DNA of 33,138 nucleotides from a virus (IMGVR_UViG_3300047564_002129:1-33138), one strand, 5' to 3'; positions 1 to 33,138 are shown, numbered from the stretch's first letter. Translations and numbers: made by a program. Notes: generated by a model not told the origin, from the sequence alone.

Positions 1-402
1 GTTAGGGTCAATGCCGTCATTGTAAAGTGCTTTAGGAGAACATCCAAACCAGCAAACACAAGTTGCCTCGGAACATCCTCTAAAACATAGATCGTCAGCA
101 TTGTTACAGCTACGTCCAATATATCCGCAAATATAATTTCCTAAACATACACAAATACATTTCTTTGTATATGCTGGTGCATTTCCAGGTAAGCCAGTTC
201 CGCAGCAACACATTTCTGCTCCAGATCCAGCTGCACCCCATGCTTCAATAATTACTTTACCGCATCCCGGTGCTTGCCAGCACCAGTTGTTACAGAAACC
301 TGAATACATGTTTCCGTCTGAATAAACCCAAATACGTCCTTTTTCAAGGTTATCTTCGAAGGTTAATTCTCTGTTACCTAATAATTGAGATAATAAAGCC
401 AT
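1..402 (-). CDS. Cys/Gly-rich putative virion (fibre tip) protein, 3'-truncated by window edge; paralog of 404..1426
   Basis: Not in the ORF track. Manual translation from the ATG at 402: MALLSQLLGNRELTFEDNLEKGRIWVYSDGNMYSGFCNNWCWQAPGCGKVIIEAWGAAGSGAEMCCCGTGLPGNAPAYTKKCICVC..., open to base 1. 16 Cys in 134 aa. Starts 1 nt after the upstream stop. Confidence 0.85.
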   Translation of the reverse strand, partial: MALLSQLLGNRELTFEDNLEKGRIWVYSDGNMYSGFCNNWCWQAPGCGKVIIEAWGAAGSGAEMCCCGTGLPGNAPAYTKKCICVCLGNYICGYIGRSCNNADDLCFRGCSEATCVCWFGCSPKALYNDGIDPN

Positions 403-403
403 G

Positions 404-1426
404 TTAGTAAGCGCCTCCGAGTTTACCTTGATTTTGTTCCATTACTCCAGATCCTCGGTAGGTTAATCTAATAGCTCCCATACCGCCTCTCTTACCGTGA
501 TCTCTCACGCCTGGACAAGGAAATGGAGGGCCGCCAGCTACACCGTAAGGCATAAACACGTAGCATCCTAATGTTTCATAGCATCCGCAGGCCTGTTGAC
601 CGTTATAACATACACTCCATGGCATACCACCACTCGGTGATCTTGACAATGAATTTAGTGCATATGCGGCATTATGATGTCCCATACCTGACCATTCAGA
701 GTATTGTGGATCGTCATCGTGTGTATAACCAAAATGTCCTCCGTCCTGACTGAAAATTCCGGAAGCGTAAGGAATAAATGATTCTGTTGAGCAGATGCAA
801 ATTGCGTAGCATCCTTTAAATTGTGCATAGCCAATACATCCGCATTTGTTGATGTCGCCACCATAACCGCAGGCTAACCACGCACCGCTACAATGGTTAC
901 ATACTATACCGCAATTGTCAACACCTGTAAATTTGGTAGTACAAAAGCCTGCTGCCGTATAACAGCAGTACGCAGAAGAACCAGTGGTACAAATTGCTGT
1001 GCCGCTACGACCGCCTTGGGCACACATACATCCGCCGGTGAATCCACATAAATCTCTAGCATTGCCCCATCTTAGATAAGAAGCAACGCTACATCCCGAA
1101 TTACATAGATCGTGAGCATTACATGCCTGACCTGGGCAACCGCAAATGTATGTATCTGGCCAAACTGCAATAGTTTTTTTAGAGTATCCAGGAGCGTTTC
1201 CAGGTAGTCCAAATCCACAACAACACATACGGGAACCACTACCTGCTGCTCCCCATACTTCCATTGTTAGTGTTCCGCAACCTGGTGATCTCCAACAATA
1301 CATAAAGTCTGATCTCACACATGCAAACATACTTGGTACGGTGACTACCCAGACCTTGCCCTTTTCCAAGTTTTCTTGGTTGCCAGCAATCTCTCTAGTA
1401 GATAATAGGTCTGATAATTTTGCCAT
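404..1426 (-). CDS. Cys/Gly-rich putative virion protein (glycine-rich adhesin-like domain)
   Basis: 340 aa with 32 Cys. Motifs EVWGAAGSG..MCCCG.GLPGNAPGY.KK and C-terminal G.RGGMGAIRLTY resemble phage glycine-rich tail domains. AGGA lies upstream of the ATG. Confidence 0.75.
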   Translation of the reverse strand: MAKLSDLLSTREIAGNQENLEKGKVWVVTVPSMFACVRSDFMYCWRSPGCGTLTMEVWGAAGSGSRMCCCGFGLPGNAPGYSKKTIAVWPDTYICGCPGQACNAHDLCNSGCSVASYLRWGNARDLCGFTGGCMCAQGGRSGTAICTTGSSAYCCYTAAGFCTTKFTGVDNCGIVCNHCSGAWLACGYGGDINKCGCIGYAQFKGCYAICICSTESFIPYASGIFSQDGGHFGYTHDDDPQYSEWSGMGHHNAAYALNSLSRSPSGGMPWSVCYNGQQACGCYETLGCYVFMPYGVAGGPPFPCPGVRDHGKRGGMGAIRLTYRGSGVMEQNQGKLGGAY

Positions 1427-1439
1427 TTTTAATTCCTAA

Positions 1440-1766
1440 TTATGGTCCGATAAACACCCAGCCAAATGTTGCGCCGGAATAAATCAAAGTTACTGCTGCA
1501 TTGTTTAAGTTCAATACTAAATCTTCTGTAAGGTTTTGAATCTTTTGTCCATTGCGAGCAAGAGTTACATTGTTAATACTAAATGTACCAGCAACATCGA
1601 TGACTTGAATTGTGTCACCGTCTGCTGGAGAACTTGGTAGTGTTAATGTAAATGCGCTGCTTGTGGAGTTTGCAAAAATCCTTTCACCGGCAGTAAGGGT
1701 TGCAGAACCAGTTAAAGTTCTGTTAGTTACGCCTTCTGCGCCAAAGGATGATACTTGTCTGCCCAT
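1440..1766 (-). CDS. Small virion structural protein (T4 tail-fibre/baseplate repeat-like beta domain)
   Basis: 108 aa. FTLTLPSSPADGDTIQVIDVAGTFSINNVTLARNGQKI...LIYSGATFGW is a repeat type common in T4-like fibre proteins. AGGAG SD. Confidence 0.7.
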   Translation of the reverse strand: MGRQVSSFGAEGVTNRTLTGSATLTAGERIFANSTSSAFTLTLPSSPADGDTIQVIDVAGTFSINNVTLARNGQKIQNLTEDLVLNLNNAAVTLIYSGATFGWVFIGP

Positions 1767-1784
1767 TTTATGTTATCTCCTAAA

Positions 1785-2105
1785 TTATACCGTTGAGGTC
1801 TCAATACCAAATACACTCACTGAGGTATTTGCATTGCTGGCGTATACAACAAGACGTTTTCCTGCATCCATCATAATACCAGTTCTTTCTAATACACCGT
1901 TTGCACCAACTACTGCATCATACTCAATAAATTCAGCTGCTGTTGGTGTAGTTGATGCTGCTAAAGCGACCCTCAGTGCTACCGTGCTAGACGATCTATT
2001 GCAGATACTTAATGCTAAAACCGTGAAGGTTGTAGCAGGTACCGTATATACCGTTGTATATGTAGCTGCGGATGGTGCCGCTTGTCCTAATAATCCTGTT
2101 GCCAT
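1785..2105 (-). CDS. Small beta-rich virion protein (paralog of 16377..16709 and 19504..19872)
   Basis: 106 aa, TVYTVPA...ICNR...IMMDAGKRLVVYAS..SVSVFGIE. GGAG SD. Confidence 0.7.
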   Translation of the reverse strand: MATGLLGQAAPSAATYTTVYTVPATTFTVLALSICNRSSSTVALRVALAASTTPTAAEFIEYDAVVGANGVLERTGIMMDAGKRLVVYASNANTSVSVFGIETSTV

Positions 2106-2118
2106 TATCGAATCTCCA

Positions 2119-5100
2119 TCAATTGTTCAATAAAAAGTAATTTAACACAAGGGCATCACCGCCTATACCGCCTTTGAAGTTTACCTTTGTATTTATGTTA
2201 ATCTGTACATTTGTTGTTGTAGCAATAGTTTGCCCAGCTATGTAAATAACACCTGCTGTGAGGGTATTTACGTTCAAACTAGAACCACCGCCACCAATTT
2301 GGCTAGTAATGTACGCTCTGATAGCTCTTTGTGTTGGAATAATGCTATCTGAATCCTGTGTAAAGAATGGATCTGTTGAGAATTCTGTAATTGTTGCACC
2401 CGAACCTCCGAGTGCTACAGAACCCAAACTTAACTCATTCAATCCAGCAATATTAAACGCATCAGCATTTAATGTTGCAACACCAGTTGATTGCTCAACG
2501 TTAAACAATCCGCCAACTCTAAAGTTACCGTCTTGGTCAGTTGATGTATAGAATACACGACCACCTAACGATTGTTTATACTCGTTCGCCGGAATTGGAT
2601 CACTAAATGGCAACCCTGGATAGTTAGTATTGGTAAAGTTTCCAGTACCAACATCTAGCAAGTCATGTCCAGTTAAACGTACCTGTGAATATCTACGTCT
2701 AATTACGGTAGCTGTTTCATGTTCTGGTGCTTCTGCTGCACCAATTGCTGGACTTAACTGCAATGTAGCATTATATGTGCCATCTGGATTTGTAACCAAT
2801 GAAGTTACATTAACTAATCTATACCATACATCGTCAATACCTGCAATTTGTACGTTAGAACCTGCCTTAGGAACATCAGTTAAATTCTTAAATCCAACAA
2901 AAGAACTAACTTGATAATTGTCAGCATATCCGTTTCCAGAAACTTCAGCTGACGCTGCTGAGAATCCAGTTCCTCTATTGATAAACGTTGGTTGAGCTAT
3001 TGCACCGGTTCCAATTCTAATTTGCAATGTTGCATCAGAACCAATATTGTTTGGATCGGTTATAGTAGCTGACGGAGCAGTTACGTATCCAGAACCTGGT
3101 TCGTGTATCCAAATTTCATATAACCTTTCATCTAATACATAAGCTCTTGCTCTTGCAGTGGCACCTTGACGAATATTGAGCACTCCCAGAGAGTCTGCAC
3201 CTAAAACTACCCATCTTGGATTACCTTGATAATTTCCTAATGCACTAGCCACATACGACTTGCTGGCTAATGAAGTCATTGACCCACTACCCGAACTTAA
3301 CACAAAATTAGAACCACCTTTAGTTGACGACACGGTAAATTGTGTAGAGTTTGGTACACTAGTTACATAATAGTATGCATTGTCAAGAAGCCCACCAAAT
3401 CGTGTACCACTAAATCTAATTCTATCATTTACATTCAATCCAGCTGTGCTTGCACAAGTTAATAAATTAGAATTCAACACAAAATTCAAACTTGCTGCGC
3501 TGGTTGTACCGCCTGTGGCTAATACTGCATTTCTATCGTTTCCATAGGCTGCTGCTGCCCAGTTTGCTGTTGAGGACAATGTAGATCCTTCGACCCATGT
3601 AGTTCCATCTGTAGAATATGCTGTTCTATTTGAGTTGTATGCAAATGCTGTAAATGCACCTCCTCCATAGACAACTTTATTCCAGTTTGCCGCTGCACCT
3701 GGTAGAGTTGCTGCTGTCCAGGTTGTTCCGTTAGTAGAATACGCTGCTGCTGTTGAAGTACCAGCTGTGCCGCCGGCAATCGCAACAAATCTTCCGTTGC
3801 CAAATGCAACATCAGACCATAAATCCGAACTTGGTAATGTTGTACCCGAAGTCCATGTTGATCCAGCATTTGTTGAATATGAAGCGGTTTGGCTACCGGT
3901 TGCGTACCCAGAAACAATTACAAAATAATCAGTTCCACCTATGTTACCGTATGCAATTGCGCTGTTTTCTGACGAACCGCCGGAAATTGCAGCGTTGGTC
4001 CATGTTGTGCCGTTAGTAGAATAATTGATTGCTGCCGAATCACCTTTAATAGCAACATATCGTCCAGCACCATATGTCATATCTTTCCAGAAACTATTAG
4101 TTGTCATAGCGTTTGCAACACTAGACCAAGTAATTCCGTCTGCTGATGTAGCAGTATCGTTTGTTCCGCCGTTGCCACCAATTAACGCCACATACTGGTT
4201 AGTTCCGTTATATGCTATGGTAGTGTATTCCCAGTTTGTTCCAGAAAGAGGTAATGTTCCAGCAACCCATGTTTCTCCATTGGTGCTGTATGCTGTTAAT
4301 GCTGTAGATCCCACACTATCATAACCAACCGCAACAAATCTTGTTCCAGACCATGTAACATCAGTCCAATAACCGGATGCAGGAAGTGTTCTAGCTGTGT
4401 AATTTGCTGGATTTGTATTTTGAGCAGTTGATGTAACATTAAATGATACATGAGAACCGTCTCTTAGTGTCCATGTTACACCGTCTGGTGAACTTGCAGC
4501 ATAATCTCCGTTGCTGGTTACGTAGAATACACCTTGGCCGTAACCAATACTAGTCCACTCATACAATCCTGGCAAGTTGCTCTTGTACCAAGTTGCGCCA
4601 TCAAAACTATATGCTGCCATTGCAGAGCTATCAGAAATTGCAACATAACGTCCGTTACCGTAGGCAATGTCTACCCAATTAGATTCTGTTGAATCATCAT
4701 TGCTTGGTAGAGTTGTTACGGTCCATGTTGCTCCCGAAGTAGAATAAGCAACGCTGTTGGAGAAGTTACCTTCAACTAGTACAAATCTACTAAATCCATA
4801 TGTGATTGCTTTAGCGCCAGATGCTACGCTGTTAGTAGACCATGTTGCTCCACCGTTGGTAGATACCGATCTAAATGCTAAACTTGAATCGCTTTCTGCA
4901 ATTGCAACAAACGACCCGTTACCGTAGGCAACATCACACCAGTCAGCTACTTCATTTAATGATGCAATAGTCCAGTTAATACCGTCTAAGCTATAGGCTG
5001 AAACTGAGCTTTCTCTAGCAATTGCAACATAATAACTAACATTGCTTACCACTCCGTATGCTATCGCAGTCCACTGATTACTTGCACCAGGTCCTGTTGC

Positions 5101-8100
5101 TGTTGGTAAAGTTGTTGCTGACCAAGTTACTCCGTCTAAGCTGTACGCACCGGTTGCAGAACCGTTAACTAAAGCTACATATTTTGCTGTCACTGCTGTT
5201 CCGCTAGCTGTTACAGATGTAATAGCACCGCTTGGATTTGTTGCAGTATCAACGGTAATAGTTAAATCATTAGCTGGAGAAGTTCCACCTAGAGAGGTGC
5301 CTGCAATAGTTAGTGTGTTACCTACAGCATATAATGCACCACCAGCTAGTACTTCAACTGAATATACTCCCTGACGTCTTGTAACATTAAATGTTGCTAG
5401 AGAGCCCGATCCACCACTTGCACTTAATGCTGTATAAGCAGCATAACCATCACCAAATACTACATCAGACCAATTTGCCGAACTTGGCATAGATGCTAAG
5501 GTTTTAGTAAATGGAGGTGCTGTAAGAACGATTCTCGGAGTGATTTCGTAGCTTGTTGTTACATCTAATGCTGCTTCAATTGGAGTTCCAGGAACCACAT
5601 GATCCCAACCGGCAGTTCCTGTTGATTCTTTATAAACGGTTGCAATTTTAGATCCTGCATTATATGTATTAATATAACCGTATTGACCTGCACCTGTTCC
5701 CGATATAATATAAATGCTCATTCCGGCATATGCACCGCTTCCGGCAATATCTGCCGCAGCTAATGTAATTTGTGTTGTATTACCAGCTTGTGCTAAGTTA
5801 GCAGCAGTAAGATAACCTTCGCCACCTGTGCCAGAACTATCACCTGGGTCTGTTAACCTTATATTGAACACAGCCCCATCTCTAAATTCATTCGCCAGCG
5901 TTGACAAACCTGATCCCGATCCGGAAGTTGTGATTGTTGCCTGACTATATTCAGAACCGGCATTACCAAATTCATAAATTAAAACATCGTCCCCGTCTGT
6001 TATCACACTTCTAACATCGGCTTCTTCCCCTCGATTATTAATTTCACCTTCGATTGGAACTTCTGTAATATCGACACCTTCAGCAACACAGCCAAAGGTA
6101 CCGTATGAGGTGTTACCATTAGTAGCACGGATCTTACCGCCATTTTCTGCTAGATATCCAATGTGTGCATAGTATGAGAACACAGAAACAAGTTCTGCTC
6201 GTCCTAAGTTAGTAATCCATGCACCAATACCATCGCTAATAACTTGTGTAAAGTCGTTGGAAACGATAGAATCGTTACCGCCAGCATGTAATGATCCGTC
6301 GATCTTTTGACCAGTTGCGCCCGTACCAAATGTTGTAACGTTTTGTACATAAGTAGATCTTGAAGTTACCCAAGTTCTATTGTCGTTTGGACCCCAACCT
6401 GGATCTAGAGAAACATAAGCGCCTGCACGAGGTCTTTGTGTTCCGTATTCATTTGCCGGTAACAATGCACTTTGTACTCCAGTTTGGTCTCCGTCTGAGC
6501 TACCATCTAGTCCTGTTACGGTTTGATTTCTTACTCCGCAACCATTTCGTACCAAATACATATTTTCTAATTTAGAACCAGTAAATGCATTTCTATAATA
6601 TTTTGCCGCATACACAGATTTATAGTTTCCTGTGTAGACCATGTCATATGCGATTGCTTCAATATAGTTTCTAACGTCGTTCTCACAGCTATCAGAATTG
6701 TATTCCCATTTGAGGGTCATTGTTCCTGAAGCTGTAGTTAATGTTTTTACTGCACCGCCTAATGTATCAGATATTTTTAAAGTAGTTGGATTAACTACGG
6801 TATGAACGTAATATGTCGTTGCTAATACAACGCCACCAAATACGGTACCTGTAAATCTAATAGTGTCTCCTGCTACCATCCAGCTGGTGTCTCCAACGGT
6901 GATAGTATCGGTACCGGCACCTGTTGTAGCTGTAGCTGTTGTTATAAATGTTGTATCAATATAAGCATTAGATTCAGCTACTAAAAATTCTTTGTTCAAT
7001 AGCAAAATACTTGCACCATTAATTACATCAATATCGGTAGTTGGACTATTTGTTCCAACAATAATCGGTTCTGTTCCTGTATTCGCATAAGAAATAATAT
7101 TATCCCAAATTTGTTGAGCTAATACAGAAGCACCCGTAGCAACAACCTTGCTACACTTAGCAGATATAAAATCTAAAATATCTTGAGTTGCGGCTAATTG
7201 ATTTGCTATAACAACTCCGGTAGACGTAATGCCTCTACGATATGACATACCGGCTTTGATAGAATTAAAATTAGAACCAAACATTAAATCAAAACCAAGT
7301 GCATCAACAATCAATCCAACGTCTCTTGAACAAGTAGATTCGTTAAATTCTAAGGTTGGATATTCTCGTTTAATAAAGGCCAAAGAATCACTCTGAATAG
7401 TTGTTCTAAATGTAACTAATGCTGTTTTGGCTTTTAATAAACTTGCTGATACCCAAGACTCGTCTGGATTTATAGTTACCGGATAGCCAACATCTGTAGT
7501 GTCGCCGTCTACGGTAATAACATCAATGATATTTTGAATTCTTTCTTCACCGAATGCTGCTGCAAATGCGTTACCGGCTGTGCCGCTTACATCTTGAGTT
7601 TCAGCATTTCCTGAACTTGGAGTGATTGATGTTTCTGTAATAACATCGCCAACAATACTCTTAAGGTGAGCGTATGCTGCCAATGTTTCTTCTTTTTCGC
7701 CATCGCCAAATGTTGCTGCACCAAAGCTGTAATATGCTTTAGCAGCAATCATTGTTTGATAATTTCCACCATAGGTTAAATCATAACGCATTGCATCAAG
7801 GATATAACCAACGTCTCTAGCACAAGCAGCCGCATCATATGTAAATGACCCCGAGAACGGAGCAATAGATCCTGCAACCTGTACTGCTATCCACGCAGTA
7901 ATTTCTGCTTTGATAAAGTTTGTGTTTGCTAAAATTTGTGCTCTAGCATTATCATATGTTGAAGTTGCTCCGGTAGGATTTCCACTAGATGCATACTCAA
8001 CTTGAGTTAATGTTGAACCCCAGTTTGTTGGACTTGGAATAACGAATGCATCAACTGCTCCAAGACCGTTAGTTAAGATGTCTTTGATTTCTGTAACATT

Positions 8101-10488: not shown

Positions 10489-10517
10489 TTATAGCTCCAT
10501 ATTCTTGCATTAAATCA

Positions 10518-10525
10518 TATTTATT
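10518..10525 (-). promoter_or_regulatory. T4-late-type promoter (AATAAATA)
   Basis: Intergenic, about 30 nt upstream of the 2789-aa gene; matches the TAAATA core of TATAAATA. Confidence 0.6.
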
Positions 10526-10542
10526 CCAAATCTTAGTTAGCA

Positions 10543-22331: not shown

Positions 22332-22336
22332 TCAAA

Positions 22337-22362: not shown

Positions 22363-22383
22363 AATACAAAACATAAGTTTTGA

Positions 22384-23571
22384 TTAGGTAAACGAAACCT
22401 TGCTGTTGTCAATGGCAACGGTACCTAGGTAGTCTGCTGCGTTACCAAGAGACGAAGCAGTATTTGTTAACTCAACATAACCATAACGTGTCATGAAGCT
22501 AACTACTGGTTCGAATGTGCTTGGATCTAGAACAACACCACTGCTCATCAATGGAATGTATGGGCAATAGAATGCTGCTGCATCAGATTCGCTAGAACCT
22601 TTGTAACCGATAAGAACTTTATCAGTTGTTGACTCTAGTTCAGCATATGTGTTAACATAAACTTTCATTGCGCCATTCAAAGTACCAACCATCTTTGTGT
22701 TAGTTGGTGCTTCAAAAGTACCTTCTGTTGTTCTTGCGAACGCAGAAGTTGTAGCACTTTGAAGAATTGTCAATGCTGTTGGGCTAACAACTGCCCAGTT
22801 ACCAGCACCACGACGTGTACGCTGAGCGATTGTGTTACTTACACGGTTGATAGCAACTGCTAAAGCAGCGTGTTCATCACCAACGAAAGTAGCAGTACCG
22901 CTAACTGCGCTTTGATCGTAGTTAACATTGTTTTGTGTACCAGCTAATGTCTTAAGGCTACGTAGAACCTCTTGATCAATTTCAGCTGTAATTTCTTGAG
23001 CCAAAGCAGCCATGATTTCTGCTTCGATGTCAATGCCTTGTTGGGCTTGTGCATCTTGAGCAGCTTCAAACGTCCAACGAGCAGACAATTTACGTGTCTT
23101 AGCTTCGACGGTCTGTTTCAAGATTTGAATGCTTAGTCTGTTACCAGCAACACCTTCTTTAGCAGCAGTAGCGTCAGCCTTGCCGTTTGTGTTACCAGAA
23201 TAGCCTTCAGCAATCTTGAATGGGCTTAGTGCTTCTTCACCAGCACTTGCAGATCCACCTGCGCTACCTGTGAAGTTATCTGAATAACGAACACGTAGAG
23301 TGTGAATTTGACCAACTGGGCCAGTCATTGGCTGAACGCCAACTAATTCATTAGCGATGACCGTAGGCATCACACGTCTGATCACTGGAAGGATCACACG
23401 ATTTAGGGTTGCAACGTTACCGGCGGATGTAGCACCAGCACTAGCAGACTCTGCCAAATACTTGCGGGTATTTTCTAGAGTAGCTGCCATAACTGAACGC
23501 TTGTTACCTTGAAGACCTTCTAAAAGGGCGTCTTTGGTTTCCGACCAGCGTGACTCGAGTAGTTGTGACAT
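22384..23571 (-). CDS. gp23: Major capsid protein (T4 gp23-like)
   Basis: GVQPMTGPVGQI, TVEAKTRKLSARWT.EAAQD, EITAEIDQE, FYCPYIPL, FMTRYG motifs. N-terminal L-x-E candidate cleavage sites. Confidence 0.97.
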   Translation of the reverse strand: MSQLLESRWSETKDALLEGLQGNKRSVMAATLENTRKYLAESASAGATSAGNVATLNRVILPVIRRVMPTVIANELVGVQPMTGPVGQIHTLRVRYSDNFTGSAGGSASAGEEALSPFKIAEGYSGNTNGKADATAAKEGVAGNRLSIQILKQTVEAKTRKLSARWTFEAAQDAQAQQGIDIEAEIMAALAQEITAEIDQEVLRSLKTLAGTQNNVNYDQSAVSGTATFVGDEHAALAVAINRVSNTIAQRTRRGAGNWAVVSPTALTILQSATTSAFARTTEGTFEAPTNTKMVGTLNGAMKVYVNTYAELESTTDKVLIGYKGSSESDAAAFYCPYIPLMSSGVVLDPSTFEPVVSFMTRYGYVELTNTASSLGNAADYLGTVAIDNSKVSFT

Positions 23572-23583
23572 TATAGTTTCTCC

Positions 23584-24678
23584 TTAAACTTTAAGTCCCG
23601 CAAGCCTGCGGATGTCAAAAATTTCAGCGGTTTTTTCTTCGTTACCGCCAATTGCTTGTGCCTGTTTATCGCCTGTAATTTCTTTGCCTTCTGTTAATGC
23701 TTTCTTCGCCGGTTTGCCACCATCCATTACAGCTGGTAGGTATTTGTCGAAAGAATTACGTAGTTTGTCAGTTTGAACTGATTCAAGCAGTTCACGCATA
23801 ACTCCACGCTTATCGCCGGACAATGGACTCAACAATTCGCTCATAACTTCCTTGCGAGTTGCAACGTCCTTAGCGATGCGTAGTTCTGCATCACGACTTT
23901 CTACTAATTTTTGTGCTTCTGCAACAACCTTTGCTGCTTCTTCTAATTCTTGTTCTTTCTGAGAAACAACTTTAAGAAGTTTTGCAGTTTCGGATTTTTC
24001 ATTTAAATGACTTGCAGCATATTCGCTGGCAAAACTTTCAAAAATTCTACGTCCAAAATCATTTTTACGTGCTGCTTCAATGTCTTCACGCAACTGAACC
24101 ATTTCAGATTTAAGTCCTTTAGTGACCGTTTCTTCAATGATTTTAGCTGAACGTGCAATAAAATCCTTCTTGATAGATTCAAATTTAGCTTTGCTTTCGC
24201 GAACTAGGCGTACCTTAGTTTCAGCTAAATCTTTCTTATCAGCGTGGAATTCTGCGATTTCCTTCGCTAGTGCATCCACTATGAAAGACTCTAATTTACC
24301 GACATTTCCTGCAACCGACTTGCGATCTTCGTGTAGTTCAGCTAATTCTTTACGTAGATTAGATAACACAAAAGATTCTAAGGCTTTAGTATCTTGTTGC
24401 ATTTTTTCTACATAACGTGCTTTAGCTTCAATAAGTCCTTGGCGATCTTCAGCCAGCTCTACTAGCTCTGCCTGTAGGCGATCAGCTAACATTGCTTCAA
24501 CGGCTTCAACCATTGCAGTCTTATCGTGCTCATACTTTTGAGCAAATTCTTCACGTAGTTCGGAAGTGACTTGGTCACGATTTTCTTGAATTCTGCTTTG
24601 CCAAGCAGATTCAATTTCCGATTTGATTTCTTCGGAAATCACATTGTTCTCAAACAATTGTTTTACGATGTCTAGCAT
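23584..24678 (-). CDS. gp22: Prohead core scaffold protein (T4 gp22-like)
   Basis: 364-aa coiled coil between protease and capsid genes; N.FGRRIFESFASE motif. Confidence 0.85.
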   Translation of the reverse strand: MLDIVKQLFENNVISEEIKSEIESAWQSRIQENRDQVTSELREEFAQKYEHDKTAMVEAVEAMLADRLQAELVELAEDRQGLIEAKARYVEKMQQDTKALESFVLSNLRKELAELHEDRKSVAGNVGKLESFIVDALAKEIAEFHADKKDLAETKVRLVRESKAKFESIKKDFIARSAKIIEETVTKGLKSEMVQLREDIEAARKNDFGRRIFESFASEYAASHLNEKSETAKLLKVVSQKEQELEEAAKVVAEAQKLVESRDAELRIAKDVATRKEVMSELLSPLSGDKRGVMRELLESVQTDKLRNSFDKYLPAVMDGGKPAKKALTEGKEITGDKQAQAIGGNEEKTAEIFDIRRLAGLKV

Positions 24679-24694
24679 GTGATTCTCCTACTTG

Positions 24695-25324
24695 TTATTT
24701 GAGACCCCTGATGATCTTCACCAGACTCTCTGCTAGGTACTTCTGTGCCTTTGGGTCGCCTTTAACTTCTTGTGCTATTTTAAATGCCTTATATCCACCT
24801 GTATTATTCATCAAGTGCTCATAAACTGGGGTAGGGTAAGCTCCTGGAGCTGAAGGTTGGGCTACTACGTCAACGGTAATAATTTCAAAACCTTGAACAT
24901 TGCCATTGCTATCAACTTCTCCAGATCCTCTACTACTTACACCTAATTTAACTCCCGACTGCAACATGGTCGTTACTAGTTGACCCATTGGAGTGGGAAT
25001 TAATTTAAGTTTTCCGTAGCCGTTAGGACCGTCCATCCACATCTTGGTAATCATATGACTAACACGATCTAGATTGATTTTTAAATCCTGTGGGTGATCA
25101 ACTTCTCCAAGCACAGAGTATCCACCAGCGATCTGCTCGTTGAGCGTTTTGACAGCCTTGCCAATTTCTTGAGAAGAATAAACACGTTGATTTGCATTGC
25201 GGATGTCTCCTTGAATGCAAATACCGTTTAAATGCAGACTCTTATTACCGTCTGCACCTTCTTCGCTCTCCAAGACAATCTTGGCCTGATCGAAACTTAA
25301 ATGTTCGCTTAGGTTAGTTTTCAC
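24695..25324 (-). CDS. gp21: Prohead protease (T4 gp21-like)
   Basis: GICIQGDIRNANQRVY, GEVDHP, INLDRVSH, LGVSSRGSG, DVVAQPSAPGAY. GTG start. Confidence 0.95.
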   Translation of the reverse strand: MKTNLSEHLSFDQAKIVLESEEGADGNKSLHLNGICIQGDIRNANQRVYSSQEIGKAVKTLNEQIAGGYSVLGEVDHPQDLKINLDRVSHMITKMWMDGPNGYGKLKLIPTPMGQLVTTMLQSGVKLGVSSRGSGEVDSNGNVQGFEIITVDVVAQPSAPGAYPTPVYEHLMNNTGGYKAFKIAQEVKGDPKAQKYLAESLVKIIRGLK

Positions 25325-25336
25325 TTAATTGTCCTA

Positions 25337-26173
25337 TTATCTACGACCACGGAAAAGGCTTTGCTTGTTATCAGCGGATTCGCCAGCGCCTTTCTTTTCT
25401 GCGCCGTGTCCAGGTTCTTTCTTAGAAAAAGCATTACCTGCTTTGCCGCCTGGGACATTGATATTACCAGCATTGTCTTCTTTAGGTGTACCTTTTAGTA
25501 AACCAGATCCTTTTAATTGACCCTGATTTGCTAATACGCCAGCTTCTTCACCACCTTTGGCAATGTTTGCTGTAGTTCCACCCATATCGTTCTTACCTGC
25601 TACGACAGACTTAGCATTAGCACCATTGTCTCCCATTTTTGCAGTTGGAACTTTTTCTACATATTCACGAACGGTTTCTAAATCAAAATCTTCTTCTTTA
25701 GCAAATGGATTCTCACCTTCTTCACCGCCTTCTTCGCCACCCATGTCGCCGCCCATAGCGTCAAACTTAGCTTGTAGTTCATCTACAATAGCGTCTAAGT
25801 CTTGGAACAATTCTTCTGGCTCTTTATCGCTTAAATCTTCTTCGTCGCCGCCTTCTGCATCTAACTCAGCTTCTAAGTCGTCTGTTGGGTCACCGCCCAT
25901 TTCGTCGCCTTCGTCATCGGCTTCGATAGCGATATCTTCAAATTCTTCGTCTAAATCATCTTCACCTTCTTCGGCTTCTTCGTCTGATGATTCTTCAACT
26001 TCTTCGTCTTCACCTTCTTCGTCTTCTTCTTCAGATAACTCGGATTCGATAAGACCTTCGTAGATCTCACGAGATTTTGCTACAACGTACTCGTGGAATA
26101 ATTCTTCTGCTTTTGCTTGGTCTTCGTTTACTAGACGCTCAAGCATCTGCTCAATTAATGATTTGTCTGCCAT
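25337..26173 (-). CDS. Highly acidic putative prohead core/internal protein
   Basis: 278 aa with a long E/D tract and K/G-rich C-terminus. Position corresponds to T4 core genes 67/68. AAGGAG SD. Confidence 0.7.
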   Translation of the reverse strand: MADKSLIEQMLERLVNEDQAKAEELFHEYVVAKSREIYEGLIESELSEEEDEEGEDEEVEESSDEEAEEGEDDLDEEFEDIAIEADDEGDEMGGDPTDDLEAELDAEGGDEEDLSDKEPEELFQDLDAIVDELQAKFDAMGGDMGGEEGGEEGENPFAKEEDFDLETVREYVEKVPTAKMGDNGANAKSVVAGKNDMGGTTANIAKGGEEAGVLANQGQLKGSGLLKGTPKEDNAGNINVPGGKAGNAFSKKEPGHGAEKKGAGESADNKQSLFRGRR

Positions 26174-26209
26174 GCTATATTCTCCTTCAAGATGGTTAGG
26201 CTGTGCTTT

Positions 26210-26217
26210 TATTTAAC
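26210..26217 (-). promoter_or_regulatory. T4-late-type promoter (GTTAAATA) for the core-protease-scaffold-capsid unit
   Basis: TAAATA in the intergenic gap, 36 nt upstream of the ATG at 26173. Confidence 0.55.
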
Positions 26218-26237
26218 ACTATGATTACAATTTGGGG

Positions 26238-26879
26238 TTAAATGGTAGTTTTTTGAAGATTTTCGCTCGTATAAGTACACCCGGGATAATGATTTTCAAA
26301 TTCTTCATATGATATATGTTTTAAATTTGTTAATTGAATCCCTAACTGATCGGGTATAAATGCAGCAGATGGAACTACCCTATAAAATGTTGTATGCCTA
26401 AATTCTCTAATAGTTTTTTCTGTTTGCGTTAACCAATTTCCGTGAAATGTAGCAACGTCAGAACTCTTTTTATAATTGTATGTATTGGCATAAACATTGT
26501 TAAATTTACCGTTCAATCCTTGATAATCAAATCCAAAAATATAAATTTCTTTATGGCCGTGACTACATGCAAACCATAAAGCTGTTGGGCCTGAGCTCCA
26601 ACCTTTATGGGGATTAAACAAGTTAATATAATGCTTTGTAGATAATCCTTTATTAGGATTAGTCCATACAGAATTTTTTTTATGATAGCCACTAGCTACT
26701 ATTTCATTGACCATTTTTACGTCAACTGCTATAAGATAATGCGGAGAAAATTCTCGATATATGGCATTACACCCGTATACCATTCCTTTATCTAATAGAT
26801 TAGTGTGGTTTAAATTTAATCGGCTTGTACCATTTCCAAGTACAAATGCTGGTTTATTCGGTTGGTTGCTCTGCTTCAC
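26238..26879 (-). CDS. DUF115/Maf-like (sialyltransferase-fold) putative glycosyltransferase
   Basis: AFVLGNGTSR..YGCNAIYR...PHYLIAVD..WSSGPTAL..A...GHKEIYIFGFD motifs. Start re-called to the GTG at 26879 (GGAG 9 nt upstream) instead of the ATG at 26939. Confidence 0.65.
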   Translation of the reverse strand: MKQSNQPNKPAFVLGNGTSRLNLNHTNLLDKGMVYGCNAIYREFSPHYLIAVDVKMVNEIVASGYHKKNSVWTNPNKGLSTKHYINLFNPHKGWSSGPTALWFACSHGHKEIYIFGFDYQGLNGKFNNVYANTYNYKKSSDVATFHGNWLTQTEKTIREFRHTTFYRVVPSAAFIPDQLGIQLTNLKHISYEEFENHYPGCTYTSENLQKTTI

Positions 26880-27105
26880 CTGCTGGGGCTCCGTACATCT
26901 GTCTAACAAAGTCCAGCTCGCTTTCACGCTCGTATTCATGAGCCTCGCTTTGCATTCTTAATTGATTTATCTGTCTTAGAGTCAAGCGAATTTTTCTTGT
27001 ATCACTTTTTTTAAGAACAGATTTATCTTTGGCGTTGTCGTATCGACGATCAACTGCAAAGTCGTTATTGTTGTCATTAAAATAAAGGAATTCAAGTAGA
27101 AGCAT
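26854..27105 (-). CDS. Small protein downstream of portal (putative head assembly/core protein)
   Basis: 83 aa, KSDTRKIRLTLRQINQLR...VRQMYG. Confidence 0.7.
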   Translation of the reverse strand: MLLLEFLYFNDNNNDFAVDRRYDNAKDKSVLKKSDTRKIRLTLRQINQLRMQSEAHEYERESELDFVRQMYGAPAGEAEQPTE

Positions 27106-27109
27106 AATG

Positions 27110-27117
27110 TATTTATT
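27110..27117 (-). promoter_or_regulatory. T4-late-type promoter (AATAAATA), 4 nt upstream of ATG
   Basis: Overlaps the portal stop codon; no SD between the box and the ATG. Confidence 0.55.
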
Positions 27118-28813
27118 ACTGAGCCGGTTGTTCTTCTGGTGCTGCTGCGGCTTCTGCTCCTGTGTCAGCAGGAGCTTCTACAGGTGCTTCTTCTTCTTGA
27201 CCTGCAACATCAGCAGCTATTCCGTTGGGAGTAATCCCAACAGATCTTAATTGACTAGCAGAATCAAGTGCTGGCGTTAATTTTCCGCCATTCTCTTCTC
27301 GCCATAGTTTTTCATTCTCTTTAATTTCTTCTTCAGTTAATCCTAAGAATCGCTTAAGAGCAAATCTCTTGCTTAAATGCGGCATTTCTTGTAATGATAC
27401 AAACGTTGCTGCTCTTGCTGTGTCAAGTTCTGATTGGCGATATGCAGCAAAATTTTGTGGTGGATTAAATTTAATTTCAAATAAGCTGTTGTCAATATTA
27501 ATACCGTTATTGTACAACCAATACTTAAATTCCTGATCAAATGTTTCAACTACCATCGATTGCAAACGTTCGCAATATTTGTTGAAGCGTAGTTCTTGAA
27601 TATATGCCGTGCCTACTTTTCCGTCAGCAACGGTATTACTAGCATCGTCGACTGAAGTTGGCAAGTAGCTGCTAGGAATACGCAAGGCTCGGAATAGTTT
27701 ATTTGTGAAATAACGTAAGTCTGTAATTTCACCAAGATTAGTACCGCCAGGTAATGTTTCTACTTTAGATCCACGACCTTCTGCTGTCTGTGGGAAGAAA
27801 TAGTCTTCTGACACTGATAGCGGATTATAGCTTGCATCAACCATGTTTTGGCCGCCACCTGTTGATGAAGGAATACGACGTTGATGTATTTCGTTTTTAA
27901 CACGTTCAACGAATGCCATAGCCATGTGTGCTGGCATGTTACCCACATCTACATAGAAAATTCTACGCTCAGGAGCACGTTGTATACGATAGATAATGAT
28001 AGCATCTTCAAGCAATTCTTTCTGTTTATAAACTTTGAATACTGATTCCAGTAACGAATTGCCAAACGGATAATTGTTGTCTAGACCTTCGCTTAGACTT
28101 ATGTGTATAACATTTTTTGCATCTACGGTTACTTCATTAGTTTGATTATGAAATCTTGTTCCTGGTGGTTGCGCTGCCGTACCAACCATTCCTCGTCCAA
28201 AACCTCCGCCCGATGTATATGAACTTGTTCCACTAGGTGCAGTATTGCTTGTACCGTGTGGCGTAACAGCAATCATTTCTTTAAAGTTAAAATTTACATC
28301 ACGAATTACATATTGTTCAGGAATCTTACCTTCGCTTTCGTTGACAATTATTTTTGAAACTTTGGCAGCATCAACGAATAACCATTTTAATGTCTGAGGA
28401 TCTCTAACAAAAAAACAATCGCCGTATTTGAAAGCATTACGCACGATGCGGAAAATTCTAGTTTCAAATTGCTGTTGCTTACTCCATTTTTGTAGACTTT
28501 CTTTGATCAACTTAACTTCAGTTGAAGTAGGTTGACCTCTAAAGAAAATATGAAAGGCTGTGGCATTTTCTTTGTCTTTTTGAGTGCAGAACTCAGCAAG
28601 GATGTCCAAAGCAGCGTTAACTTCTGAATCCATGTCCATAGTATCGTACTGCATGTATCTTTCAACACGATTTGGAGCTCCTGCATAAACATCTGGTAAA
28701 AAACTAGAATAATTAGATCGTGCAGGTCCCGGGCGGCCACCACTAGCAATTGGGCTATAACTTCCAGATTGGTTATCTATGTTAACCGGTGTAAAATATT
28801 TTTTCCAAGACAC
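27116..28813 (-). CDS. gp20: Portal protein (T4 gp20-like)
   Basis: LLEDAIIIYRIQRAPERRIFYVDVGNMP, EDYFFP...GRGSKVETLPGG.NLGEI.D..YF..KL.RAL.IP.S, ELRFNKY..RLQ. GTG start. Confidence 0.97.
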   Translation of the reverse strand: MSWKKYFTPVNIDNQSGSYSPIASGGRPGPARSNYSSFLPDVYAGAPNRVERYMQYDTMDMDSEVNAALDILAEFCTQKDKENATAFHIFFRGQPTSTEVKLIKESLQKWSKQQQFETRIFRIVRNAFKYGDCFFVRDPQTLKWLFVDAAKVSKIIVNESEGKIPEQYVIRDVNFNFKEMIAVTPHGTSNTAPSGTSSYTSGGGFGRGMVGTAAQPPGTRFHNQTNEVTVDAKNVIHISLSEGLDNNYPFGNSLLESVFKVYKQKELLEDAIIIYRIQRAPERRIFYVDVGNMPAHMAMAFVERVKNEIHQRRIPSSTGGGQNMVDASYNPLSVSEDYFFPQTAEGRGSKVETLPGGTNLGEITDLRYFTNKLFRALRIPSSYLPTSVDDASNTVADGKVGTAYIQELRFNKYCERLQSMVVETFDQEFKYWLYNNGINIDNSLFEIKFNPPQNFAAYRQSELDTARAATFVSLQEMPHLSKRFALKRFLGLTEEEIKENEKLWREENGGKLTPALDSASQLRSVGITPNGIAADVAGQEEEAPVEAPADTGAEAAAAPEEQPAQ

Positions 28814-28827
28814 TATCTTAGTTCCTT

Positions 28828-31800
28828 TTAGGACGACATAAACATGTCGCCGCCCATTGTTCTTTGTACTCTTAATTGACTTTCATTTAAGTCAACCGCG
28901 GTTCTACTAATACTAATTAATGTACCCATCTGCATATTTAACCTTTCTAACAATGCTACAGCTTCGTTTAGGCTCGAAATTCCACCTGCTCCAGGAGCAC
29001 CTGATCCAGGAACAACTGGAGGAGATTGGGTAGTAGGAGCAGAAGCTGAAGCAACAGATGATGCTGCCGCTGTTGTTGCCGCTGTTGCCGTTGGAGTTAC
29101 TGCTGATGCTACAGATGTTCCGCTAGGAGTAACAGGGGCTGATCCCCCTGCTAATAATCCTAAAATATCTTGTTGTTCTTTTCCAAATCTGTTAACTACG
29201 CCGGCTTGTACATTAGCAGTACTGCCTCCAAAATGTTTTTTACCGCCATCGGCACCTCTTTCTGCATATACAGCCTTTACAAGCTGTTCATCAGTCATGC
29301 CTGGTTTGAAAACGCTGTTAAAGATTTTCATTGCACCACCAGGCCCGTGTTGCACAGCGGTACTAAACAACATTTCTTGAAGAGCTCGACTACCGTTAAT
29401 TCTTGCCTGTAGACCTTGATCTTTTAGGCCTTTTAGAGCTGTTCCGTATCCTTGTCCTAAAAATTCATTTTCGCTGTTGCCCAATGCACCACTAGCTGCA
29501 ACTTCTTTCCACACGTCAACTGCTTTACCACTAGTACTGCCAGTGTCTTTTTCTATACCTGCATCACGTAATTTTTTAGCAACATCACCTTTTCCTGTCT
29601 TTTCAAGGAATTTAAGAAAATCGGTCATTGCTCCGGCTCTGGACGAAATTTGTTTTTTACCGTAGCTAGTACCTCCTACTTTATCCCATCCAACGGTTCC
29701 GCTGCCTCGGCCTGCTGATTCATATTTTTCTGCTACTGCTCCTAGACCAGTGCCAATTGCAGATGCGCCGGGTATTTCCGCCACTGGTGCTGATCCAGAT
29801 GTTGTTCCAGACGGTGCTGCAACCTGAGGAGCTCCGGCTCCTCCTTCTCTTACTGCTTTAAAGGAATTGTATAATGCTTGTGGACTACTGAAATCTAATC
29901 CTTTTTTCTTAGCAGCTTCTTCTGCTGCTTTAGCTTCTTCTGCTTTTTTTGCAGCATCTAATTCTGCTTTTTTTGCATCGTCTAAGGCTTTAGTGGTAGT
30001 TGTTAATCCTTCTTGTACTTTTTTGCTGTTGGCTGCTAGTCTAGCTTCAATTTCTGCTTTTTTCTTTTCAGCGTCGGCTAGTGCTGCTGCTGCTTCGGCA
30101 GAATCTCGATCGGCTGCTGCTTTGGCCTTGGCTGCGGCAATAGCACTTAATTGAGCGTTTAAATCTTTTTTAAGTTGTTCTTGCTTTTGTTCAGCTAATG
30201 CTAATTCTTGTTTATGAGCGTCTGCAATTGCACTAAGCTCTTTTTGGTCTGCTAAGGCAGATGGTGAGCCTGCAGACGATGTTGTAGTTGTAGTTGTAGA
30301 TGCAGTTGTTGTAGGTGCGGTGCCTCCGGCTGCATTTTTCTTTTTTAAATATTCTGTTTCTGCTAGTATTCTATCATGTTTAGCCCGTTCAGCTAGTTTA
30401 TCTAATCCAATAAAACTTCCTACACTTTCAACACTTCTTGCAAGACCGCTTTGTGCTTTTTCCCACCAAGATGCAGCTTTCCAATTTGCTTCATCTTGCT
30501 TGGCCATGTCTTCAGTAACTTCTCTCGAAGCACCAGCCGCATCCATTAGGCTGTCAGTTACGGTTCCTGTTGCATACGCCAATGCACCAAATATAGTTGC
30601 TGAAGTAGCGACGTCGATCGCTGTTCCAACAGCTCCGCCGCCAACTCCAGCGGCATCGGCGGCAACTTGTGCTGCGGCACTTTTTCCGCCTTTTGGTTTT
30701 CGTCCTGTGCCGCCTTTACCGCCTTTTGGTCCACTTTTTCTACGACGTCGGCGTCCGCCACCACCACCTCCGCCAGCATCTCTAACATACATTGCATTTG
30801 CTGGACTAGAACCTCTTAAATTAGCTTTCCATTCTCTTATTTTTAATGCGGCATTAAACAATGCTGAAGCAATTTTTAGACCGCCTAATATCACTACCGT
30901 TTCTTTGAGGTACTTCATCAAAAACTCAAATCCAGGTAATACCCATTGTTCAACAAATCCGGCTAACTTTTTAAAAGCAGCTTCTAAATCGGGCAAATAT
31001 TTTGCCACGGTCTGTGTAATTCTGTTATTAATTTCAGCAATTAATTGTTGGAATCTTTGTAGTTGTGCCGGATCTAATGCTTCTTTACCCGCTTCTGCTC
31101 GTTTTCTAGCAGCTTCTAAATCGTCTGCTTGTTTTTTTTGTACATCAGTTAAATTACCAGCCTGTGCTGATAAGTTATGACTATCTAAAACTAATTGCTG
31201 TTGGATGCTGTTGCCAGTATTAGCTAATAATTTAGCTGTCCCTGTCTTTTTAAACTCGTTAGCTTCATTCCTAATAGTTGAATATGCATCGTTGATAGTT
31301 TTTTGAGATACGGTTCCTGTAGCGTTTATTTCTTGGAATATCTGATTGGCATTACCTGCAGATTTTTGCATAAATGTTGCAAATTCTCTACCTGCATCAG
31401 TAGTTGCTCCACCAAATGCAATATATTCTTTCATACCTTTTTGCATCGACGGAGGTAATGACAGCATCAATTTGTTAAGTTCAGCGGCTCCTTTTGGATC
31501 CATTTCAGCTAACTTAGTTCGATATGCTGCATCGTTCATCAAGGCATCTTGTTCTGCCTGTAGTGCATCCTTACTCTTACCAGTCAATTTAGATAGTGCA
31601 TCTAAATTTTTAAGATATTCTCCGCTGCCTGCAATTAACTGAGCATCGGTTTGTCCTTGTAATTTACCAGTCTTACCAAGTATACTGACATACTTGGCCA
31701 TTCCGTTATTGATATCTTCAGTAGTATAACCTAGTCTAGCTAAATCAGCATTTAATGGATTTGTTCGAATCTTAGCGCCAAGTTCAGCTAAACGTTTGGC

Positions 31801-32502
31801 ACCGTCTCCTGCACCTTGTGCTAACATAGCTAATGATTCGCCGTTCTTTGCTAAGACTCCCGCAAACTGATCAAAAGTCATACCTGCACTAGTAGCAGAA
31901 TTGATCATGTCATTGATACTACCACCAAAGTTTGCACCTACACTAGATGCCTGTTGAAATGCCTTATAAGTTCTTTCACCTGCTTGTGCAATAACACCAA
32001 ATGTGCTGGCCAGCATATTTCCAACTAAAGGAATCGCACCCATGGCCTGTGCAGCCGAACTCATACTAGAATTTAAATTAGAAAATGTACCAATTGTTTT
32101 TGTCAAATACCCAATTGAATCTTCTAACCTGCCAGTCCATTTATCAAGCGTTGCTAAGTTTTTTTCTAGACTTTTTGTTTCTTCGTCGTATAATTTTTTA
32201 GCCTTGGCTTTAGCTTCTCTTTCAGCTTCTGCTTGTTCCGCTTGTTTTTTTTGTGCCTCTGTTAATTTTTTTATTCCAGCAATTTGCGCATTCTGAGCTT
32301 TGTCTGCATCGCTAGCAGTTTTTGCTAACTTTCTTAATTGAGCTTCTAGGTCTTTTTGAGTTTTATTGTCAGCTTTGGTGCCTTTGTTCTGCATGGCAAC
32401 TGAAGCCAGCATGGCCTGCAGAAGCTGTTTTAACGTAGCTTCGGTAGCTGCATTGTTTAATTGGATTGGTTGACCACCAAGATCGCCTGTGACTTCTGCC
32501 AT
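28828..32502 (-). CDS. Tape measure/baseplate hub protein with C-terminal lysozyme-like (VgrG3-type) domain
   Basis: 1224 aa, Ala/Gln/Lys-rich and helical. LGAVAEKYES..G.G.V..D..GG.SYG..Q...STAVQHGP...VYAER...RF..E resembles the VgrG3 C-terminal muramidase. Lies divergent from a gp26-like gene. Confidence 0.7.
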   Translation of the reverse strand: MAEVTGDLGGQPIQLNNAATEATLKQLLQAMLASVAMQNKGTKADNKTQKDLEAQLRKLAKTASDADKAQNAQIAGIKKLTEAQKKQAEQAEAEREAKAKAKKLYDEETKSLEKNLATLDKWTGRLEDSIGYLTKTIGTFSNLNSSMSSAAQAMGAIPLVGNMLASTFGVIAQAGERTYKAFQQASSVGANFGGSINDMINSATSAGMTFDQFAGVLAKNGESLAMLAQGAGDGAKRLAELGAKIRTNPLNADLARLGYTTEDINNGMAKYVSILGKTGKLQGQTDAQLIAGSGEYLKNLDALSKLTGKSKDALQAEQDALMNDAAYRTKLAEMDPKGAAELNKLMLSLPPSMQKGMKEYIAFGGATTDAGREFATFMQKSAGNANQIFQEINATGTVSQKTINDAYSTIRNEANEFKKTGTAKLLANTGNSIQQQLVLDSHNLSAQAGNLTDVQKKQADDLEAARKRAEAGKEALDPAQLQRFQQLIAEINNRITQTVAKYLPDLEAAFKKLAGFVEQWVLPGFEFLMKYLKETVVILGGLKIASALFNAALKIREWKANLRGSSPANAMYVRDAGGGGGGGRRRRRKSGPKGGKGGTGRKPKGGKSAAAQVAADAAGVGGGAVGTAIDVATSATIFGALAYATGTVTDSLMDAAGASREVTEDMAKQDEANWKAASWWEKAQSGLARSVESVGSFIGLDKLAERAKHDRILAETEYLKKKNAAGGTAPTTTASTTTTTTSSAGSPSALADQKELSAIADAHKQELALAEQKQEQLKKDLNAQLSAIAAAKAKAAADRDSAEAAAALADAEKKKAEIEARLAANSKKVQEGLTTTTKALDDAKKAELDAAKKAEEAKAAEEAAKKKGLDFSSPQALYNSFKAVREGGAGAPQVAAPSGTTSGSAPVAEIPGASAIGTGLGAVAEKYESAGRGSGTVGWDKVGGTSYGKKQISSRAGAMTDFLKFLEKTGKGDVAKKLRDAGIEKDTGSTSGKAVDVWKEVAASGALGNSENEFLGQGYGTALKGLKDQGLQARINGSRALQEMLFSTAVQHGPGGAMKIFNSVFKPGMTDEQLVKAVYAERGADGGKKHFGGSTANVQAGVVNRFGKEQQDILGLLAGGSAPVTPSGTSVASAVTPTATAATTAAASSVASASAPTTQSPPVVPGSGAPGAGGISSLNEAVALLERLNMQMGTLISISRTAVDLNESQLRVQRTMGGDMFMSS

Positions 32503-32528
32503 TTAGTAAAAATCCTAAAAACTGCGCA

Positions 32529-32536
32529 TATAAATA
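32529..32536 (+). promoter_or_regulatory. T4 late promoter TATAAATA for the gp26-like gene
   Basis: Perfect consensus, 33 nt upstream of the ATG at 32570. Confidence 0.75.
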
Positions 32537-32551
32537 TATGTGTAGATAAAG

Positions 32552-32559
32552 TATTTATC
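32552..32559 (-). promoter_or_regulatory. T4-late-type promoter (GATAAATA) for the tape measure-portal unit
   Basis: ATAAATA about 50 nt upstream of the ATG at 32502. Confidence 0.6.
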
Positions 32560-32569
32560 GGAGATAAAA

Positions 32570-33138
32570 ATGCCAGATCAAACCATTCCACAACCGGTTA
32601 AAAAGCCAGTTAATAATCCACTTGCCAATTATTTTAGGCAACCAAAATTGTATATTAAATTACCCAGTCACGGAGCATTCTATCCCGAAGGGGCACTGGA
32701 CGTTAGTCAAAATGAAGAGTACGCAGTATTTGCTATGACTGCTAAAGACGAGTTGATGTTTAAAACTCCAGATGCATTAATGAACGGACAAGCTACCGTT
32801 GAAGTTATTAGAAGCTGTGTCCCGGCTATTAAAAATCCTTGGGCAATGCCTAGTATTGATATAGACTCTATATTGATTGCTATTAGAATTGCGTCGTACG
32901 GTGAAAATATGGATGTTAGCAGTGGTTGTCCTTCCTGCGGACATCAAAACGACTACGAGCTTAACCTTCTATCGTTTTTAGATAAAACCAACAGCTTTGA
33001 ATATAAAAGCATGTTAACTATAGATCAATTGACTATTAATCTTCGTCCGTATAATTATAAAGAACTTACACAGGCAGCAATTAAAACATTTGAACAACAA
33101 AAATTAATTTCAATTGTAACCAATGATGAGTTAACCGA
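32570..33138 (+). CDS. gp26: Baseplate hub assembly protein (T4 gp26-like), 3'-truncated
   Basis: Not in the ORF track. Manual translation MPDQTIPQPVKKPVNNPLANYFRQPKLYIKLPSHG.FY...MTAKDEL..KTPDALMNG...D.D.ILIAIRIASYGE.MDV...CPSCG, open to the window edge. GGAG SD. Confidence 0.75.
   Translation, partial: MPDQTIPQPVKKPVNNPLANYFRQPKLYIKLPSHGAFYPEGALDVSQNEEYAVFAMTAKDELMFKTPDALMNGQATVEVIRSCVPAIKNPWAMPSIDIDSILIAIRIASYGENMDVSSGCPSCGHQNDYELNLLSFLDKTNSFEYKSMLTIDQLTINLRPYNYKELTQAAIKTFEQQKLISIVTNDELT

Follow-up and report, generated by a model that had tools for sequence, protein, structure and literature searches.

Endonuclease II of phage T4, which has the GIY-YIG fold, degrades host DNA, and T4 protects its own DNA through the replacement of cytosine; among restriction enzymes, HpyCH4III, Bst4CI, TaaI and Tsp4CI recognise the interrupted palindrome ACNGT. 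ACNGT systems fill 14 species rows in file 4 of a study of restriction-site avoidance by phages (Rusinov et al. 2018, PMC6286503), and the host of Helicobacter phages is among their bearers. Modification of phage DNA with 7-deazaguanines is likewise tied to short sequence contexts: the DpdA of phage CAjan has the motif GA/GGC, with GGT partly modified (PMC7544227), that of phage iggy the motif GA (PMC10484667), and for phage PA5oct the context of modification is given as ‘GA and/or GG’ (PMC12191111). Here we describe a stretch of 33,138 bases (IMGVR_UViG_3300047564_002129:1-33138, analysed at its full length and called the window below), which holds a jumbo phage's virion-gene region and from which the palindrome ACWGT (ACAGT or ACTGT; W stands for A or T) is missing altogether. 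The agent that selected for this purge is very likely a sequence-specific nuclease, and comparison of sequences across viral loci points to a nuclease encoded by the phage rather than to a host defence, so that the missing word need not be the fingerprint of the host's defence that a first-pass annotation took it for.

That annotation, made from the sequence alone, had claimed a total avoidance of ACWGT where several dozen copies would be expected, an abundance of ACSGT (ACCGT or ACGGT; S stands for C or G) and of [CGT]CWGT, and a shift of Thr-Val pairs to the codons ACC and ACG, all of which was borne out by computed counts (word counts are written observed/expected throughout).

Positions 1 to 33138, no strand: absence of ACAGT and ACTGT together with an excess of ACCGT and ACGGT (99), with 0 ACWGT found against about 46-84 expected.
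Positions 2041 to 2054, minus strand: two consecutive Thr-Val junctions, both ACG GTA, which read ACCGT on the plus strand at 2041 and 2050 and are examples of forced codon choice.

In the window ACAGT and ACTGT each occur 0 times, ACCGT 56 times, ACGGT 43 times and [CGT]CWGT 364 times. ACWGT is the most depleted of all 5-mers (z -6.7), with 45.5 or 55.9 copies expected from order-3 Markov models and 84.1 from an order-2 model, and the depletion holds against codon-shuffled nulls: 1000 synonymous-codon shuffles gave 55.2±4.9 copies (minimum 40), and 1000 shuffles that also preserved the next base gave 52.4±4.7 (again with a minimum of 40). Words one mismatch away from ACWGT, other than ACTGT, lie at observed-to-expected ratios of 0.90-1.53, and ACSGT is enriched in coding sequence (98 observed against 45-54 in the codon shuffles). 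Threonine before a GT codon is ACC or ACG at 49 of 49 junctions, with ACA or ACT making up 782 of 1003 Thr codons (78%) overall, and all of the sites that had been singled out (2041, 2050, 22418, 23108, 23360 and 32795) are ACSGT. The remaining two frames are empty as well (xAC followed by AGT or TGT, 0; A-CAG-T and A-CTG-T, 0), such that in every frame the palindrome lies far below what the Markov models and the codon-preserving shuffles predict; the counts and these nulls reject a scan error as well as a bias in codon pairs or in shorter motifs.

The purge extends beyond the window. A second contig (G001) overlaps it over 31,249 bases at 99.98% identity, which makes it the same phage, and its 13,311 further bases again contain 0 ACWGT against 25-35 expected; in the resulting 46,450 bases, about 13% of a genome of about 350 kb, ACWGT stands at 0/119 and ACSGT at 150/91. 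Contigs of related strains offer a very small sample, 3 single-nucleotide polymorphisms in 481 bases, none of which creates ACWGT. The sequencing runs that best match the window are freshwater metagenomes, and the capsid match places the phage, by sequence, in a clade of jumbo phages of about 350 kb.

Positions 22384 to 23571, minus strand: major capsid protein, 65-68% identical to those of PA5oct/Paride, Phosso and GAP32-like jumbo phages.
Positions 28828 to 32502, minus strand: long tail protein, probably tape-measure-like, 100% identical in G001 and 58-59% in G002.

Within this clade the nearest long relative (G002; 353 kb, 98% complete) does not purge ACWGT. A sister phage known from a 219-kb record (G009, capsid 85.5% identical) does, with ACWGT at 0/459 and ACSGT at 558/325. 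Among 170 further clade loci, not chosen for any nuclease and surveyed for zero-count words with G001 left out, only one is free of ACWGT (L164, 0/8.7 in 5.3 kb, weak as the locus is short), and the same depletion, which the first-pass annotation had suggested looking for in related phages, is seen in this locus and in G009; other lineages lack CATG, AGCT, GTAC or ACGT instead. In a quick tree of concatenated head proteins (101 rows, identical rows dropped, G002 absent under its own name) the window, G009 and L164 fall into separate supported clades, which forces three changes, and three separate ACWGT-free lineages are the pattern expected of a mobile gene. As to the other words, G004 (L225-L231) has CATG at 0/400, lost in all flanks, and AGCT at 55/381, and G005 (L232-L234) has GTAC at 1/142. 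These near-total CATG and GTAC purges may mark further solitary phage nucleases; a profile of the nuclease family phrog_1111 had no match in the partial records of G004 and G005.

A candidate for the selecting enzyme is found in G009.

L321:7918-8466, in G009: solitary nuclease of 183 residues, a GIY-YIG homolog.

Its profile has Hpy188I (3OQG, E 0.0085) as top match in the PDB and the ‘endonuclease’ family phrog_1111 in PHROG, a family that may be that of T4 endonuclease II. Among nine clade sequences the profile matches G009 alone; the other eight, G002 included, have no match, and in G002, G006 and G008 the genes that flank the nuclease slot are kept and the nuclease is missing. The G009 protein is 36% identical over 130 residues (E 2e-19) to a Helicobacter pylori GIY-YIG enzyme at a probable ACNGT locus, to which the phage nucleases as a group are 32-36% identical. 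This H. pylori query is a gene pair after typA, in which a methylase of D12 type accompanies a GIY-YIG nuclease, three genes past a gene of 545 residues that we take to be the ATTAAT methylase, an assumption on which the ACNGT assignment depends. In PMC4450513 ATTAAT goes with the tag K747_10980 and ACNGT with K747_10995, the ACNGT entry being listed as N4-methylcytosine (m4C). Used as a query against proteins, the H. pylori nuclease gave near-identical matches, the named ones among the best 120 of 607 all being from H. pylori, and the H. pylori methylase had no match in the clade genomes, G009 included.

Presence of this nuclease goes together with the purge. In 19 of 20 viral loci that carry close homologs (39-100% identical), ACWGT is at zero and ACSGT at or above expectation, against the background of 1 in 170 given above, and not one of the 20 has a methylase match. 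Seven of the loci are copies of the G009 phage, 11 belong to one AT-rich group of T4-like phages (93-100% identical) and two come from other phages, which makes about four groups from two unrelated phage clades. Homology of the nuclease to characterised restriction enzymes was found in G009 and in the AT-rich carrier phages, not in the window, and no methylase match was found in L464-L483 or in G009. Over 70 kb pooled from four of the AT-rich carrier loci, ACWGT stands at 0/125 and ACSGT at 101/65.

We propose that the genome of the phage of the window encodes, outside the 46 kb sequenced, a solitary GIY-YIG endonuclease for which cleavage of ACWGT, and truly of ACWGT only, is predicted. In the course of infection it would cut up the DNA of the host or of competitors, in the manner of T4 endonuclease II; the phage would be protected through having no targets of its own, every ACWGT having been erased by silent codon changes. 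With no partner methylase, self-protection would have to come from target absence, and a total and lineage-specific purge would follow. Our belief in this proposal, as to presence, activity, specificity and role together, is about evenly balanced with our doubt. More tentatively still, and with doubt somewhat the heavier, jumbo and T4-like aquatic phages may share a mobile, methylase-free ACWGT enzyme of new specificity with which they attack host DNA, and erase their own targets, with CATG and GTAC purges possibly marking more such enzymes, and with the jumbo clade hiding GA and GG by means of an uncharacterised DpdA family, a modification whose motif would be legible from word counts alone.

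A hiding of GA and GG is suggested by which restriction sites the clade has lost. Among 86 clade sequences of at least 9 kb (near-duplicates kept), 27 of 27 strong purges concern words without GA or GG, and no strong purge of GATC, GGCC, CCGG, TCGA, CCWGG, GAWTC or GGWCC was seen. A site that has G as its last base is lost only before a pyrimidine (in G002, RCGCGY is at 0/84 and YCGCGR at 85/81; R stands for purine, Y for pyrimidine), CTGCAG in pooled clade loci divides by flank into 39/251 and 257/201, and GCTWAGC is depleted and GCTSAGC kept in nine of nine clade sequences. A GA or GG at unspecified positions protects too, with GCNNGC in G004 at 12/137 when free of GR and at 107/88 otherwise, and GGT contexts appear, from clade word statistics, to be protected like other GG contexts. 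The phage of the window has the same signature.

Positions 1 to 33138, with G001, no strand: GA/GG-shield signature in word counts by flanking base.

In this phage CGCG is at 0/10 between R..Y flanks, 2/21 with one such side and 5/10 between Y..R flanks, and CTGCAG runs through the flank classes as 0/6, 2/10 and 8/4; AGCGCT is at 0/6 against 11/8 for the GG-containing RGCGCY, GTGCAC at 0/7 against 20/15 for the GA-containing GWGCWC, GCTWAGC at 0/6 against 3/4 for GCTSAGC, and AAGCTT at 0. The jumbo clade, this phage included, purges only restriction sites that lack GA and GG, with some exceptions: TCWGA is low (median observed-to-expected ratio 0.65 across the 86 sequences) and, among 80 loci drawn from a search with the TGT-like protein described below (near-duplicates kept), passed a cut applied without normalisation in 15, and GGGCCC (5/18 in G002), GACGTC (5/22 in G008), GACGCC (4/32 in G004) and AGCTCC (1/42 in G007) are depleted in spite of their GA or GG. 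Word counts of this kind imply that G in GA and GG contexts is shielded, and a gene cluster of relatives, described below, points to a 7-deazaguanine-like modification there. Since ACSGT has GG on one strand (ACGGT), a cutter of ACNGT facing such a shield would select against ACWGT only.

The nuclease of the phage could, on that basis, read ACNGT, with the phage's modification of GA and GG shielding ACSGT, an explanation that we judge unlikely. It would draw on the strength of the shield signature in the clade, on G009, in which the nuclease and a modification cluster (dpdA-like, dpdL, glycosyltransferase, folE and queE) occur together (five of the 80 loci belong to this one ACWGT-free phage), and on the behaviour of family members paired with a methylase, which act as ACNGT enzymes and mostly lose both forms: ACWGT and ACSGT stand at 46/109 and 6/40 in Syn30, 69/116 and 3/34 in Sf-CH11, 12/25 and 4/15 in L487, 13/44 and 1/8 in L490, and 0/14 and 0/7 in L489. 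(The two cyanophages, L484 and L486, hold the full nuclease and methylase pair and have ACSGT more depleted than ACWGT; L489:2397-5544 is a giant-virus contig with homologs of both genes from which ACNGT is entirely absent. The later scan for paired methylases relies on full-length matches to the Syn30 methylase.) The four variants of ACNGT are, however, not all avoided in this phage, in G009 or in the AT-rich carriers, and the last of these, of the same nuclease subfamily, are the harder case for a shield, as they purge GA sites (GATC 30/195, TCGA 9/82 and GAWTC 53/135 in the four pooled loci), two of them also CCGG (L482, 0/7; L483, 0/3), and yet spare ACSGT. Carriers that lack the GA/GG signature and still spare ACSGT favour a phage enzyme truly specific for ACWGT. 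QueE was not found in three AT-rich carrier records, a weak point as these are 15-40% complete.

Several observations weigh against the proposal of a solitary ACWGT nuclease. The gene is absent from the window and G001, 46 kb in all, and a scan of IMG/VR with the nuclease profile returned no contig of this phage. The AT-rich carriers keep CCWGG (86/52), GGWCC (45/44) and GGCC (36/39), so that a shield of GG alone is possible there. One locus with the nuclease, L480, has ACWGT at 8/17, all in its first 2.4 kb (1-2401); it matches its twin L472 over just 4,363 of 7,585 bases, and by this comparison appears to be a mosaic or to hold newly acquired DNA. Six distant homologs (23-34% identical, L493-L498) come with no purge and three paired ones (L463, L488 and L491) with little or none, and the H. 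pylori relative is, by locus-tag arithmetic, part of a probable ACNGT system, although its methylase has the motif DPPY, of D12 type, which does not match the published m4C.

A restriction enzyme of the host, of the HpyCH4III, Bst4CI or TaaI class, could equally have selected against ACNGT with the phage's modification shielding ACSGT, and this too seems to us a minor possibility. Such systems exist, as the 14 species rows attest, and metagenomes commonly contain homologs of the probable methylase (533 confirmed stretches, with a nuclease homolog in 40 of the 80 kept loci); Helicobacter phages lose both forms (ACWGT 0/13 and 3/15, ACSGT 6/22 and 8/22), this phage displays the shield, and PA5oct, which has the same modification cluster, resists EcoRI, XbaI, BsaI and BmrI (PMC12191111). 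(In the 81 of 287 kb of PA5oct in L235 and L236, GTGCAC is at 0/13, and the published resistance to ApaLI may merely reflect a lack of sites.) A host enzyme would, on the other hand, leave unexplained the solitary nuclease in purged phages and the empty slot in relatives that do not purge; it misfits the AT-rich carriers, and no host was found.

That the host bears an undescribed restriction-modification system specific for ACWGT, the first of the two options in the first-pass annotation, is improbable in our estimation. Other interrupted palindromes do have forms restricted to W (GCWGC, GGWCC, CCWGG and GAWTC), and avoidance of host sites is well documented (PMC6286503). ACWGT has 0 occurrences in the restriction-modification site tables of that study, however, and as a whole word, alone or with ‘methyltransferase’, it was not found in the full-text literature, a search that misses split notations and has REBASE and bioRxiv supplements outside its range, while looser matches appear, from the titles listed, to be primers or motifs; no host was found for this system either, and the link with a phage-borne nuclease would be unexplained.

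An ACNGT cutter stopped at ACSGT by CG methylation, the form of protection that the first-pass annotation had in mind, is very improbable in spite of the CG inside every ACSGT, given that no C5 or N4/N6 methylase gene (PF00145 or PF01555) was found in nine clade records (98% complete in one case), that CG in the window, at 1089, is not depleted relative to the 1017 of the codon null, and that CGCG is itself purged, its surviving copies being purine-flanked. What stands of that annotation's interpretation is, very likely, a sequence-specific nuclease and, with real support, the idea that a modification could shield ACSGT, though the one indicated is of G in GA and GG; its call for methylase or base-modification genes is answered by 7-deazaguanine-type genes in relatives.

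These genes form a cluster in several clade members.

L183:2804-14343, in G002, with the same cluster in G006, G007, G009 and G012: genes for a TGT-like protein, a dpdL-motif protein, a glycosyltransferase, FolE, a PRTase and QueE.
L183:2804-4345, in G002: TGT-like protein of 514 residues with conserved DSGG(F/Y)Q, LDxP, GW, HFLG and D294.

G002 encodes the precursor enzymes FolE, QueD and QueE, folE and queE are present in G006, G007, G009 and G012, and gp168-gp162 of PA5oct form the same cluster, without folE within the stretch read. The motifs of the TGT-like protein resemble those of TGT enzymes, and its model (pLDDT 72.8) has alternating strands and helices; Pfam TGT matches are weak and below the cut-off in 4 of 73 homologs (best E 0.0045), searches with PF01702 and against PDB sequences were negative, and the protein has no match to the DpdA of CAjan. 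One G002 gene bears the DpdL motif LxxxHRHxF (bioRxiv 10.1101/2023.04.13.536721). Two other candidates for DpdA were rejected, L180:14854-16017 for want of a usable match and L183:7127-8227 as a glycosyltransferase. From these sequence features the TGT-like gene is a candidate for a new DpdA family, and a 7-deazaguanine at GA and GG may be glycosylated.

Some further features lie outside these subjects. TAAATA/TATTTA, which we take to be possibly a T4-type late-promoter word and so possibly avoided, is low in the window (18 vs 41). Window positions 1-1426 (minus strand) hold very cysteine-rich paralogous open reading frames that extend into G001 next to a carbamoyltransferase-like gene, and G002 (L177-L181) has many host-type genes, among them DnaK, heme oxygenase with a bilin reductase, CsgF/CsgG, TctC, IscU, UvdE and a CHASE2 cyclase.

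The avoidance of sites, nucleases of phages and 7-deazaguanines all belong to kinds already known; new here are the candidate enzyme and the reading of the GA/GG shield, and an ACWGT specificity of the nuclease would be new. A missing word has led to a named and clonable candidate enzyme with a specificity not found in print. A palindrome purged from an uncultured phage may tell of that phage's own nuclease and not of a host defence, a caution for the prediction of hosts, and the sequence context of a DNA modification can be inferred from the variants of restriction sites that survive. Attention is, moreover, drawn to an unannotated DpdA-like family in a jumbo-phage clade that is abundant and includes the cultured PA5oct.

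Compared with Hpy188I-type and ACNGT enzymes, the candidate is similar in its best structural match, its identity to the H. pylori enzyme and its predicted target, an interrupted 5-bp palindrome, and differs in being phage-encoded and without a partner methylase and in the loss of the W form alone, where paired relatives lose both. With T4 endonuclease II it would share, by analogy, a solitary phage endonuclease of phrog_1111 and, presumably, the task of breaking down host DNA; T4 replaces its cytosine, however, whereas here the 5-bp target has apparently been removed entirely. The relatives' folE, queD, queE, DpdL-motif gene and TGT-like gene, with an avoidance pattern that implies a GA/GG shield, recall the described DpdA systems, although the TGT-like protein of the clade is divergent and unannotated, a glycosyltransferase lies within the cluster, and GGT seems as protected as other GG, unlike its partial modification in CAjan. 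Finally, the silent and lineage-specific purge of a palindrome is of the kind described by Rusinov et al. 2018 (PMC6286503), but the phages in that study were matched to the restriction-modification sites of their hosts, whereas the enzyme that selects here is likely the phage's own.

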